A stretch of DNA of 64,000 bases from NCBI RefSeq assembly GCF_964213995.1, contig NC_135809.1:86552001-86616000 (forward strand). Direction: 5' to 3'. A program made the position numbers and the translations under genes. This DNA is from Mustelus asterias (Eukaryota). Positions 2,958 through 64,000 of the stretch are shown in pieces. Numbering within the stretch: the first letter of the stretch is position 1; each line of letters starts with the position of its first letter. A model generated the notes under the pieces. That model saw only the letters and a list, made by a program, of their open reading frames with translations. It had not been told where the DNA came from and did no database searches.

Positions 2958-3023
2958 TATATGCTTATGGTATTTGCTACCAAATAAACCTGTTGGACTT
3001 TAACCTGGTGTTGTGAGACTTCT
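2958..3023 (+). mobile_element. 66-bp Penelope-like 3' terminal insertion with 13-bp TSD
   Basis: GCTACCAAATAAACCTGTTGGACTTTAACCTGGTG also at 62391-62425; TAGGGTGAACTCA at 2945-2957 and 3024-3036. Confidence 0.85.
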
Positions 3024-3140
3024 TAGGGTGAACTCAGCCAGTAAGAATGGGTGGGTTGACGTTTCATGGGATGCTCAGATTTTAATCTCAAAGCGGGCCC
3101 CCAACTCATCTCCAGTCTGAAAAGTCACTGTAACACCTTA

Positions 3141-3246
3141 CCTGACGGTGGCTTTTGCTACCAAATAAACCTGTTGGACTTTAACCTGGTGTTGTGAGAC
3201 TTCTTACTGTGTTTATCCCAGTCCAACGTCGGCATCTCACATCATG
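3141..3246 (+). mobile_element. 106-bp Penelope-like 3' terminal insertion with 8-bp TSD
   Basis: matches ~62382-62479 including the tail extension; ACACCTTA at 3133-3140 and 3247-3254. Confidence 0.85.
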
Positions 3247-3399
3247 ACACCTTAAATCAACAGCAGAACATTGTGGAATGAATTATGGATAGCTATTGCT
3301 GTCAGTTAATTTTTGACTCCTGCTTTTTACTTTATGATTTCATTCCTGATGGATACAGTGCTTACTAATTTAATTTTCTCTTTGTCAGTCAGAGCTTCT

Positions 3400-22900: not shown

Positions 22901-23272
22901 TCTGTGTTGTCTCTACTCATTTTCCTAGTCATACTTTATTTCAAGGGGATGGCTGCTAGTGCCTCCATGCCTAAGAGCAATTACTGTGTGCAGAAGCCTT
23001 AATGTCAGGACCTGCCACACCACTCCATGTAACTTTATTGAATTCTAGAAAGCATCAAACACTTGTACAAACATAGCAATAGCCATAGAAATCATTCAGT
23101 AATGTATAAAAAGTTCATGGCCACAATCGCCTCCATTGAGAGAGTCATTGATGATTGCTATAAATAGCACGGTTGCAGGTTTCCTCTTGCTGTTAAACTC
23201 GTTTAGAGTTGTGTGTGATGGGTATTAACTGGAATGTTGGCCTTCAAAATGGCATTACTGGCACTGCGTGTC

Positions 23273-23847
23273 AGTAAGGAGTTTAACAACACCAGGTTAA
23301 AGTCCAACAGGTTTATTTGGTAGCAAATGCCATTAGCTTTCGGAGCGCTGCCCCTTTGTCAGGTGGAGTGGAGAAATGCTCTCAAACAGGGCATACAGAG
23401 ACACAAACTCAATTTACAGAATAATGATTGGAATGCAGTCTTTACAGATAATCAAGTCTTGAAGGTACAAACAATGTGAATGGAGGGAGTATTAAGCACA
23501 GGTTAAAGAGATGTGTATTGTCTCCAGACAGGACAGCCAGTGAGATTCTGCAAGTCCAAACAAGCCATGGGGGTTACAGATACTGTGACATGAACCCAAG
23601 ATCCCGGTTGAGGCCGTCCTCATGTGTGCAGAACTTGGCTATCAGTTTCTGCTCAGCGACTCTGCGCTGTCGTGTGTTGTGAAGGCTGTGTTGGAGAATG
23701 CTTACCCGAAGATCAGAGGCCGAATGCCCGAGACCGCTGAAGTGCTCCCCAACAGGAAGAGAACAGTCTTGCCTGGTGATTGTCGAGCGGTGTTCATTCA
23801 TCTGTTGTCGTAGCGTCTGCATGGTTTCCCCAATGTACCATGCCTCT
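23273..23847 (-). mobile_element. Penelope-like element, 5' truncated (GIY-YIG)
   Basis: AWYIGETMQTLRQQMNEHR...VAEQKLIAKF...GLNRD; same family as 60791-62479. Confidence 0.92.
23330..23366 (-). ncRNA. minimal type I hammerhead ribozyme (core slightly mutated)
   Basis: CCAC-CTGACAA-AGGGGC-AGC-GCTCC-GAAA-GC-TA-ATGG. Confidence 0.65.
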
Positions 23848-60345: not shown

Positions 60346-60453
60346 ATACTTACCTGGCAGGGGTGAAACCATAATCAAGCAGGTGCTGCACCCAGGACCT
60401 GGCAGGGGACAAGGCTAGCCCGTTGCACTTGGGGTGTGCTGACACCTGCGATT
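60346..60453 (+). pseudogene. U1 snRNA-derived segment (3' truncated)
   Basis: ATACTTACCTGGCAGGGG...ACCAT(A)ATCA...CCCAGG...TTGCACT...TGTGCTGAC(A)CCTGCGATT is collinear with roughly the first 100 nt of U1; no Sm site or stem-loop IV. Confidence 0.9.
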
Positions 60454-60536
60454 GTGGTTTGCTGAAGCCAGGGTAAAGTAAAGGATCAGGGTAGCCAATG
60501 AGGTAAGACGGAGGGTTTACCTGATGCAATGTTTTA

Positions 60537-60708
60537 AAGCCACCTTGGCCTTTTGGCTAAGATGAAGCATTAGTTCAAGTTTGGGAGGGGGTGCAATGCC
60601 TCATCTTGTCAGCTGGGATCTTGTTTGATCGAGCCCAAGATAGGATGCAAAGTCTTGTCAGCTTGGATCTTGTTTGTCCCTCGTGGGGACGATGATTGGC
60701 TTTTTTGG
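60537..60708 (+). pseudogene. U2 snRNA-derived segment with internal duplication
   Basis: GGCCTTTTGGCTAAGAT (60547-60563); TCTTGTCAGC(TG/TT)GGATCTTGTTTG twice (60604-60627, 60653-60676); GTCCC...GGGAC stem IIb-like; CTTTTTTGG Sm-like site. Confidence 0.75.
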
Positions 60709-60790
60709 TTATAAATAAAATACCGAGAGGTAAAAATAAAAAATACAGTGCATGCTACACAATCACTGACAATTCTGTCCTCTCTCTCCA

Positions 60791-61433
60791 AGTAAGAAGT
60801 TTAACAACACCAGGTTAAAGTCCAACAGGTTTATTTGGTAGCAAAAGCCACACAAGCTTTCGGAGCTGCAAGCCCCTTCTTCAGGTGAGTGGGAATTCTG
60901 TTCACAAACCGAGCATATAAAGACACAGACTTAATTTACATGAATAATGGTTGGAATGCGAATACTTACAACTAATCAAGTCTTTAAGAAACAAAACAAT
61001 GTGAGTGGAGAGAGCATCAAGACAGGCTAAAAAGATGTGTATTGTCTCCAGACAAGACAGCCAGTGAAACTCTGTGGGGGTTACAAATAGTGTGCCATGA
61101 ACCCAATATCCCGGTTGAGGCCGTCCTCGTGTGTGCGGAACTTGGCTATCAGTTTCTGCTCAGCGACTCTGCGCCGTCGTGTGTCGCGAAGGCCGCCTTG
61201 GAGAACGCTTACCCGAATATCAGAGGCCGAATGCCCGTGACCGCTGAAGTGCTCCCCAACAGGAAGAGAACAGTCTTGCCTGGTGATTGTCGAGCGGTGT
61301 TCATTCATCCGTTGTCGCAGCGTCTGCATAGTTTCCCCAATGTACCATGCCTCGGGACATCCTTTCTTGCAGTGTATCAGGTAGACAACGTTGGCCGAGT
61401 TGCAAGAGTATGTACCGTGTACCTGGTGGATGG
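60791..61433 (-). mobile_element. Penelope-like element, left arm of the inverted pair
   Basis: YSCNSANVVYLIHCKKGCPEAWYIGET...R...E...GLN (GIY-YIG endonuclease), 3' UTR and hammerhead. Confidence 0.95.
60848..60892 (-). ncRNA. minimal type I hammerhead ribozyme
   Basis: CCACTCAC-CTGAAGA-AGGGGC-TTGCA-GCTCC-GAAA-GC-TT-GTGTGG; intact core and palindromic AAGCTT stem III. Confidence 0.75.
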
Positions 61434-61448
61434 GATCCATCCAATGGA

Positions 61449-61772
61449 CCATACAAAGGTCCATTGACCTGGGGCGGGATTTTCCAGACTTGGGGCGAGC
61501 GTGGCCAGAAAATCCCACCCAGAATGTTTTTATTCCAATTGAGTTTCTTGCAACCCAACTCACCCAATCCCTGCCCACCAATCATCCAGCTTTCCAAAAA
61601 ACAATTATTGCAAAAGTATGCTGAGTTGGGTTAAGAAATGATTTTTTTCCACCTAAAACTGTTTATTTAACTCTATATTTACCTGAATAGAGTTAAAGGA
61701 GCCATTCCTCAGTTCGGCAAAAAAATTCTTATTTTGGATACACACACTTAATTATTGTGGAAGTCTGAAGGC
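61449..61772 (-). repeat. 324-bp perfect inverted copy of 63449-63772
   Basis: block-by-block comparison found no mismatch or indel. Confidence 0.97.
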
Positions 61773-61801
61773 ATTTGTATGGTCCATGGTGTTAAATGGA
61801 G

Positions 61802-62479
61802 CCATCCACCAGGTACACGGTACATACTCTTGCAACTCGGCCAACGTTGTCAACCTGATACGCTGCAAGAAAGGATGTCCCGAGGCATGGTACATTGGGG
61901 AAACTATGCAGACGCTGCGACAACGGATGAATGAACACCGCTCGACAATCACCAGGCAAGACTGTTCTCTTCCTGTTGGGGAGCACTTCAGCGGTCACGG
62001 GCATTCGGCCTCTGATATTCGGGTTAGCGTTCTCCAAGGCGGCCTTCGCGACACATGACGGCGCAGAGTCGCTGAGCAGAAATTGATAGCCAAGTTCCGC
62101 ACACACGAGGACGGCCTCAACCGGGATATTGGGTTCATGGCACACTATTTGTAACCCCCACAGTTTCACTGGCTGTCTTGTCTGGAGACAATACACATCT
62201 TTTTAGCCTGTCTTGATGCTCTCTCCACTCGCATTGTTTTGTTTCTTAAAGACTTGATTAGTTGTAAGTATTCGCATTCCAACCATTATTCATGTAAATT
62301 GAGTTTGTGTCTTTATATGCTCTGTTTGTGAACAGAATCCCCACTCACCTGAAGAAGGGGCTTGCAGCTCCGAAAGCTTGTGTGGCTTTTGCTACCAAAT
62401 AAACCTGTTGGACTTTAACCTGGTGGTGTTAAACTTCTTACTGTGTTTACCCCAGTCCAATGCCGGCATCTCCACATCA
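61802..62479 (+). mobile_element. Penelope-like element, right arm (with ~37-nt tail extension)
   Basis: ~98% identical to the left arm; CGA>TGA stop near 62056; 14-bp TSD CCTCTCTCTCCAAG around the whole pair. Confidence 0.95.
62341..62385 (+). ncRNA. minimal type I hammerhead ribozyme
   Basis: same sequence as 60848-60892 on the opposite strand. Confidence 0.75.
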
Positions 62480-63229
62480 GGCCTCTCTCTCCAAGACATA
62501 GCAAAAACAAATATAAGAGAACAGCAGAGACAGCAAGGAGCCAGACACCTCTTCACTCCCTGATCCAGATAGAAGAAGTGGGGCTCCACCATGTGGGATA
62601 GGCTGTGATAGAGCCCTTAGCTGAGGCCAATCAAGGTGCCTTATGCTTTTTCTCAACTCCCACCTCACCCTTTATCCTATTATGAAATGCAATCTACAGC
62701 TGGTGGCATTTCTCTTCCCCACTCCAACTCCCCCCAATCTTCCCCTTCTGATTTTTTTGCCTTCACATACCCAAAAATTGTTGCCAGGCCTGCCACAGTA
62801 GCCTCAGGACGGAGAGAGAGCTGCACCAGATCTCTGAGAAAAAAACATCACATGGTCTGATACTTCGAGTCAGCAGCTTGGATTCAAGCACTTTGCCGAC
62901 TTTAAATGCTGGTGTAGAATTGGGATCTGCTGACTCTATGTTTGGCTATGATATGTCCTCTAAATAACCTGTCAATATTCACAGCCCAACTCATGCATGA
63001 AGAATGATAGAAAATCAGAATGGAAGTGCAGAAGATTGGGGAAGAAACAATGTTTGTAGATAACTAGAAGCACTTTATATTGCCATTACTAACATTAAAT
63101 CCATTTACTTCTCTTCCCAACTGCATTTTGTTAGTGAAAATTTAAGTTACTAATAAAGAGGATGTTATAGGGAGTTTGAGTTGCTCTGGCAACATGCAAT
63201 TTTTACATGTATGATGAAGTCTAGAGTTA

Positions 63230-63452
63230 TGGATAGTAATTGCATAGACTCCAATGTTATTTCCATCACATGGCTGACCAGAAATATCTCCCACTCTTAC
63301 CATCTGCTGTTGGTGTGTGTTGAAAGGATTTGCAGATTAATACTCAACTTATTTGGTCACATTATGAACACACCATCCATAGCCATCAGGTCCTCGGGTG
63401 GACTGAACTCAGAGCTTCTAGCTCAAAGGTAGAGACACTACCCATTGCGCCT
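63230..63452 (-). mobile_element. old tRNA-headed SINE
   Basis: minus strand GGCGCAATGGGTAG...GAGTTCAGTCC resembles pol III A/B boxes. Confidence 0.5.
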
Positions 63453-63700
63453 TCAGACTTCCACAATAATTAAGTGTGTGTATCCAAAATAAGAATTTTT
63501 TTGCCGAACTGAGGAATGGCTCCTTTAACTCTATTCAGGTAAATATAGAGTTAAATAAACAGTTTTAGGTGGAAAAAAATCATTTCTTAACCCAACTCAG
63601 CATACTTTTGCAATAATTGTTTTTTGGAAAGCTGGATGATTGGTGGGCAGGGATTGGGTGAGTTGGGTTGCAAGAAACTCAATTGGAATAAAAACATTCT

Positions 63701-63825
63701 GGGTGGGATTTTCTGGCCACGCTCGCCCCAAGTCTGGAAAATCCCGCCCCAGGTCAATGGACCTTTGTATGGGCCATGTCCCGCCCGCTACATTTCCCGT
63801 GACGGGCGGGACTAAAGTTCTGCCC
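63701..63825. mobile_element. ~125-bp MITE related to 22211 and 48930
   Basis: GGGTGGGATTTT...AAAGTTCTGCCC ends; internal GAAAATCCCGCCC..GGTCAATGGA. Confidence 0.6.
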
Positions 63826-63939
63826 TTTGTCATTTGGCAAAATATTTGTTTGATTGACAGTTCTTTCAGTTTAACAGGCAATAATTTGTATTCTGCTTGA
63901 TCACCAATAGCATTCTAAATGTATTTATCATCCAATGGA

Positions 63940-64000
63940 CATAGTGGTTTGTCACTGAAATAGTAATCCAGAGGCCTAGGGTAATGCTCTGGGGATCCAG
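63940..64000 (+). mobile_element. start of a tRNA-derived SINE cut by the window edge
   Basis: ATAGTGGTTTGTCACTGAAATAGTAATCCAGAGGCCTAGG...GCTCTGGGGA. Confidence 0.5.

Follow-up and report, generated by a model that had tools for sequence, protein, structure and literature searches.

In vitro, the anole Penelope-like element Poseidon cuts and extends both DNA strands, its reverse transcriptase (RT) starts at two sites bounding the tail, and a dimer is predicted (PMC11167929, text available in part). Priming on both ends would therefore yield a head-to-head pair in which one arm carries the tail and the other is tail-less. In the available portions of PMC11167929 and PMC8557442, the formation of inverted Penelope-like insertions and the closure of their joint are stated to be open questions, and palindromes have been attributed to self-priming in the accessible sections of PMC3846280. 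The same sections describe host DNA in Pen1_Av as 0.9-1.5-kb spacers before the 3' pLTR and between solo pLTRs, there without a local donor. Copying of nearby genomic DNA at integration is on record for L1, with 22 templated instances among 3,598 solo L1 insertions and three in a cell model (excerpts of bioRxiv 10.1101/2024.08.27.596794 and PMC11702581).

The locus described here lies in a 64,000-nucleotide stretch (the window) of a 3.68-Gb genome and consists of two head-to-head Penelope arms with a templated patch between them (Table 1). As far as the available text of PMC3846280, PMC8557442 and PMC11167929 goes, it shares with inverted Penelope-like insertions an inverted 5'-truncated copy, a 30-40-bp tail at one end, a duplication round the whole unit and a putative GIY-YIG end; unlike the inverted insertions described there, its apex was copied from the flank of the insertion site itself, and its arms belong to different sub-lineages. 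Both arms and the patch are enclosed by one 14-bp target-site duplication, which the initial annotation had missed together with the tail of ~39 nt on the right arm only. The arms are 97-99% like a longer Penelope copy elsewhere in the genome, and are too short to contain the RT domain. In L079, a relative of that longer copy and 98% similar to the arms, a single frame of 813 aa matches Pfam RVT_1 above the cut-off (E 8e-10). The arm translation matched PF01541 (GIY-YIG) at E 2.3e-4 with 21.9 bits against a cut-off of 22.6, and the 813-aa frame gave no GIY-YIG match at E<=0.01. An Rfam search for hammerhead ribozymes, which may miss minimal forms, was negative in four loci (E<=1) and in the window (gathering score). 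Elsewhere in the window there is an older Penelope copy on the minus strand (23272-23846, ~85% like the young family), and at 2973-3249 two short Penelope 3' ends stand in direct orientation ~120 bp apart, with a tail on the second.

Table 1. Features of the patched Penelope insertion and its donor DNA (window positions).
Feature	Position	Strand	Remark
Target-site duplication, left copy, 14 bp	60779..60792	+	exact repeat at 62482-62495
Left arm, Penelope, 5'-truncated, tail-less; predicted GIY-YIG domain end and 3' region	60791..61433	-	
Left-arm sub-lineage 62301A/62305C/62339T (right-arm numbering)	arm 60791..61433		
3-nt loop and 7-nt snap-back at left-arm end	61434..61443	+	accounts for the CCATCCA "direct repeat"
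Piece A, 12-bp direct copy of 63929-63940	61438..61449	+	
Long templated copy, 329 bp, inverted, of 63449-63777	61444..61772	-	older base kept at the 63773 site
Piece B, 15-bp direct copy of 63764-63778	61774..61788	+	older base here too
Piece C (the "filler"), copy of 63516-63529, one extra base	61789..61805	-	
Right arm, Penelope, 5'-truncated at same base as left arm	61802..62443	+	sub-lineage 62301G/62305T/62339C
Penelope tail, ~39 nt, right arm only	62444..62481	+	
Target-site duplication, right copy, 14 bp	62482..62495	+	
Donor zone, 0.95-1.28 kb from target site	63449..63778	+	
MITE, 125 bp, high-copy family, whole only in donor	63701..63825	+	
Piece A donor, 1.44 kb from target site	63929..63940	+	

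The reported identity of 61449-61772 with the reverse complement of 63449-63772 was reproduced over its 324 bp (E 1.8e-168, far above chance), and the CCATCCA repeats, the 14-bp inverted ends and the MITE were all found in place. The figure of 0/324 differences holds for this exact core; the full copy, however, is 329 bp long and has one mismatch. At that position (63773) the donor has G and the insert T, and since 22/24 other MITE copies carry the T of the insert, the donor probably changed from T to G after copying; the shorter match had thus been trimmed at a real later mutation. The 14-nt filler does lie where it had been placed, but it is not mere filler: the bottom strand of 61805-61791 aligns with the donor at 63516-63529 with one extra base, and such a match was seen in 0/109 background windows of equal size. 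This piece C has 4 nt (ATGG) in common with the right-arm end, on which its copying would have been primed. An origin of the filler from Penelope sequence was ruled out, all copies reading differently upstream. Piece A is an exact match whose length of 12 bp was likewise reached in 0/109 background windows, and it overlaps the snap-back and the long copy by 6 nt each. With the filler and the left joint also templated, four pieces in all derive from one zone of 500 bp that lies 0.95-1.45 kb off the target site, and this bears out the multi-step template switching that had been proposed. The assignment of the downstream copy as donor is upheld as well, the MITE being whole only there. The insert is neither a high-copy repeat nor Penelope sequence: outside the ~85-bp MITE end, it matched the insert and donor sites alone among the 40 candidates scored of 3229.

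In another organism, a contig of sequencing run X1 matched the left flank up to 60792 and then continued for 793 more bases without an arm; we read this contig, from its sequence, as a probable empty site. The donor in the same contig differed at 8/284 bases. Further out in the left flank, a U1 snRNA-like stretch at 60346-60490 matched Rfam U1 with 29.9 bits, below the gathering score, and is followed near 60540-60680 by what we take to be a U2-head-like motif with a 24-bp repeat. The U1/U2-like stretch is probably an snRNA-derived repeat or pseudogene, because many contigs cover it.

The family survey comprised 177 Penelope loci, 111 of which (111/177) held an adjacent head-to-head pair of one tail arm and one tail-less arm; the main C3 palindrome, displaced in the count by an older one nearby, was added back to give 112 pairs. 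Duplications at the other palindromes were mostly 12-14 bp, and most apices had either a 1-18-nt overlap or short pieces in reiteration. Thirty-one copies were initially classed as solo; a duplication at most 12 nt from the element was present in 11 of them, and all 11 were tail-less, while tail-bearing ends in this set were in palindromes or without a clear duplication. The 11/11 tail-less solos suggest that the tail-less site is primed before the tail site. Minor alleles common to both arms were found oftener in near-symmetric than in asymmetric pairs (168:35 vs 328:142, p=0.0004), a pattern that may reflect a fold-back or single-RNA origin in some members of the family. Fold-back as the sole route was rejected, the longer arm being the tail arm in 17, the tail-less arm in 15 and near-equal in 7 (n=39). 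Nor were tail arms more mutated, with 84 vs 77 private changes. At 25/38 palindromes the arms differed at one or more family-polymorphic non-CpG sites, and 77 non-majority alleles were still common to the arms; the 38 palindromes thus combine pairs whose arms share a source with pairs whose arms do not, or else conversion has acted. An identical or near-identical 13-14-bp target duplication was seen at unrelated loci (L040, L062, L072, L099, L114), which suggests a preferred target inside another repeat.

Spacers of nearby-DNA origin were sought at the other Penelope palindromes, as the initial annotation had envisaged, and an apex copied from 0.8-1.9 kb away was found in 4/112 head-to-head pairs, window locus included. 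This rate (~3-4%) is a lower bound, and the maximum donor distance is limited too, because the visible flanks span 0.4-2.5 kb at most loci; one of the four is the case by which the phenomenon was ascertained. The palindrome at G000:C3:81.23 Mb has a 256-bp apex copy from 1.6-1.9 kb downstream (2/256 differences vs 1/570 between its arms), which is preceded by a 9-bp snap-back and lies between arms already unequal by 685 bp. This patch is repeat sequence, of which the neighbouring copy was the best of 40 scored. The L176 apex holds 27 bp from 0.84 kb upstream (0/27 vs arms 0/153), and that of L185, a palindrome that is exactly symmetric, 42 bp from 1.75 kb upstream (2/42 vs arms 7/252). No other result is as strong as L051. 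Here a solo tail-less element has, within its 14-bp duplication, 349 bp copied in direct orientation from DNA 1.55-1.9 kb upstream. Its patch has a 4-nt microhomology at the cDNA end and differs from the donor by 7 substitutions and 1 indel, the next-best genomic match being <=91%. Four patched loci built in the same way thus exist beyond the window, spread over three other contigs, and the feature is real and recurrent. Because four more insertions are patched, one of them without a palindrome, the copying most likely took place during insertion rather than in later repair. We consider it probable, on this evidence, that the cDNA ends copy flanking DNA while the element integrates and are joined afterwards.

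Other candidates did not hold. The 243-nt non-Penelope spacer of L074 (L074:3232-3474), a complex palindrome, had no donor within the surrounding 25 kb. A 450-bp stretch in L087 looks like a subsequent insertion within an arm, and the flank matches at L193 and L207 were other Penelope copies. As for further spacers tried as flank copies, 7/13 tested and one duplicate family insert were sub-family sequence, and three were reiterated short motifs. At the apices of L198, L205 and L215 the spacer is a short motif in at least 3 copies in a row, like reiterated abortive priming. The palindrome at G000:C3:81.23 Mb (L096/L097) is also the nearest relative of the right arm at the window locus (5/567), a link that may reflect ascertainment because it was found via a right-arm allele. 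A short Penelope palindrome at L172 is flanked, outside the element, by a 162-bp exact direct repeat (956-1117, 1654-1815) and by a 171-bp inverted repeat, one more case of local duplication. The L176 palindrome lies between what look, by eye, like exons of a seven-transmembrane receptor, and L051 sits in an older Penelope fragment, 77% alike and of opposite sense, outside its duplication, which counts somewhat against capture at integration.

The initial annotation had dated the patch by using the arms as a clock, and its 11 substitutions and one 2-bp indel between them were confirmed by recounting. The arms are nevertheless unfit as a clock. Of the 11 substitutions, 3 distinguish two Penelope sub-lineages, and both arms have closer relatives elsewhere than each other: the left arm differs at 3/641 from four arms elsewhere and the right arm at 5/567 from its nearest relative, as against 11/641 between the two. 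The left-arm haplotype at the three linked sites (62301, 62305, 62339) was found in 27/105 and the right-arm haplotype in 31/105 other aligned arms, group sizes that are biased by gathering with the two arms as queries. At a fourth difference, 62426, the right arm shares its base with one arm of the right-arm group. Since the three diagnostic sites fall within 39 bp, a gene-conversion tract between arms identical at birth is an alternative to two templates. The apparent age gap has p=0.02 on the initial figures (0/324 vs 11/641), p=0.07 with the full copy (1/329 vs 11/641) and p=0.29 once the three lineage-diagnostic sites are removed as well (1/329 vs 8/641). The insert is still nominally less diverged, with 3.6-4.1 differences expected and 1 seen (P(<=1)=0.08-0.13). 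Pooled over the four patched palindromes, patch-donor divergence was 5/654 vs 19/1616 between arms (p=0.50, at low power). An explanation of the arm differences by two pLTRs of one source, confined to the 3' part, was rejected for want of a positional trend (p=0.12-0.70). Arm-to-arm divergence, which is used for LTRs, is unsafe for dating such Penelope insertions.

Centre-break rearrangement of long palindromes yields a changed apex with a spacer, and needs a prior perfect palindrome. Penelope patches are unlike it in that they are not younger than the arms (at low power) and also occur on a solo copy. The reading first proposed for the window locus was of this kind: a perfect palindrome, its loop just 3 nt long, would have come first; a cut at the tip, staggered by 7 nt, would have followed, and repair by template switching would have added a spacer that lowers hairpin formation. 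Truncation of both arms at the same base and the 7-bp repeat do fit a staggered cut, and these arm ends, with the 7-bp hairpin and 3-nt loop at the left joint, are as a former perfect tip would leave them. Same-base truncation is common, however, because the arm ends lie within 15 nt of each other in 42 pairs and within 2 nt in 16/111. L185 is likewise exactly symmetric and patched, while the C3 palindrome already had a 685-bp loop, and L051 speaks against palindrome breakage because no partner arm existed to break. The nominally younger insert (1/329 vs 8-11/641) would agree with a later event, but the gap is not significant after correction and there is none at the three other loci. Neither the window locus (p=0.29) nor the pooled data (p=0.50) nor the same patch on solo L051 therefore supports a patch made after insertion at a broken tip. 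Palindromes with short or no spacer are described as more fragile (PMC7999016, available in part); yet pairs with arms of 1294, 1621 and 1881 bp, near-perfect and with an asymmetry of 6-13 nt, persist with no spacer. A spacer is therefore dispensable for persistence, and the view of the patch as a stabilising spacer is not borne out. Altogether we regard later repair of a broken tip as unlikely.

Much less probable still is an old or undated patch whose likeness to the donor was kept by gene conversion between inverted copies 1.7 kb apart. Arms identical over 99-768 bp in four palindromes, from conversion or from youth, would be in keeping with it, but the derived base of the donor at 63773 was not passed to the insert, and no extra youth is left to explain. 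Least credible of all is an assembly or chimeric-read artefact at the palindrome: although 61433-61444 and 61772-61802 were crossed by none of the 32 contigs listed of ~129,655 (Logan, four runs), and the sole contig entering the left arm goes 23 letters in (threshold 31), both copied pieces carry the older T against the G of the assembled donor, the 14-bp duplication is perfect, the four pieces come from one zone with microhomologies, and the same build recurs at four more loci on three other contigs. In X19 the depth over the insert was 28.7 vs 19.7 and 22.1 for flank contigs, which leans to an extra copy, but depth is not copy number; X21 and X22 gave little or no cover over the insert.

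Capture of flanking DNA during integration remains the reading that we prefer. Taking two-strand cutting and extension and the two start sites from the literature, and the anatomy, donors, arm sub-lineages, recurrence and equal divergence from the loci themselves, we infer the following sequence of events. The Penelope protein would cut both strands 14 bp apart, and a cDNA would be primed on each 3' end, one starting at the tail-less site and the other at the tail site; here the two cDNAs may have been copied from RNAs of two sub-lineages. Being of the same sense, the two cDNA ends cannot pair and would need end-joining. Before closure, the ends would prime at 4-6-nt microhomologies in the zone 0.95-1.45 kb downstream, in several rounds of copying (~10, 15, 329 and 6 new nt, plus the 7-nt snap-back), until the nascent ends share enough sequence for annealing. 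In a few per cent of apices an end would first prime on flanking DNA. The template would be flank bared by 1-2 kb of 5' resection, and the polymerase a host enzyme, Pol theta-like or BIR-like, or the RT itself.

The orientation of the copies bears on this model. At 5/5 loci the long copy is compatible with templating by the strand whose 3' end is kept. The copy is direct at the four other loci, as would result if a cDNA paired with the 3'-ended strand on the opposite flank, and inverted at the window locus, as would result if the right cDNA folded back onto the strand of its own flank; both geometries point to a single-stranded flank from 1-2 kb of resection. Piece B requires the other strand and has no simple fit to resection. 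A wider claim, which we put forward tentatively and would not yet bet on, is that Penelope integration here routinely makes two cDNAs, often from two RNAs, that are left unjoined while 1-2 kb of flank is resected, the ends then copying its far part.

Among described systems, L1 templated insertions resemble these patches: copying of nearby genomic DNA accompanies integration, the copy lies within the duplication where the cDNA has its 3' end, and such events are rare (bioRxiv 10.1101/2024.08.27.596794; PMC11702581, both in their available parts). L1 templates are typically <250 bp and <=15 bp from the site (available text of bioRxiv 10.1101/2024.08.27.596794), whereas the Penelope patches measure 27-349 bp and come from 0.8-1.9 kb away. 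The copy at the window locus is 329 bp long and has its donor at 0.95 kb, with the others at 0.8-1.9 kb; unlike those of L1, the patches are germline and lie in 4/5 cases between two cDNA ends. Polymerase theta insertions share reiterated priming at tiny homologies, overlapping pieces, snap-back and copying errors in short pieces; in the worm, though, ~85% of inserts were primed within 10 bp of the break, with a mean of ~10 bp, as against a Penelope donor ~1 kb off (PMC5068794, available portion). Templates within tens of bp and short tracts, as left by Pol theta, do not describe the long copy at the window locus. SDSA or microhomology-mediated BIR is the nearer parallel for a 329-bp tract with its donor 1 kb off. 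We found no report of Penelope joints copied from flank 1-2 kb away in the literature searched, most subscription papers lying outside it.

The joint patches resemble L1 templated insertions, except that their donors lie much farther away. The loci lend genomic support to both-strand priming in Penelope, and indicate that one pair can combine arms with different source copies and that a few hundred bases of host DNA, lying 1-2 kb off, can be duplicated at the joint. If the wider claim is true, the donor distance (0.8-1.9 kb in 5/5 cases) would be a fossil ruler of germ-line resection length, and thousands of such palindromes would preserve in the genome a trace of how the Penelope cycle ends. 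The patches bear on the step of that cycle in which inverted structures form and their joint is closed.
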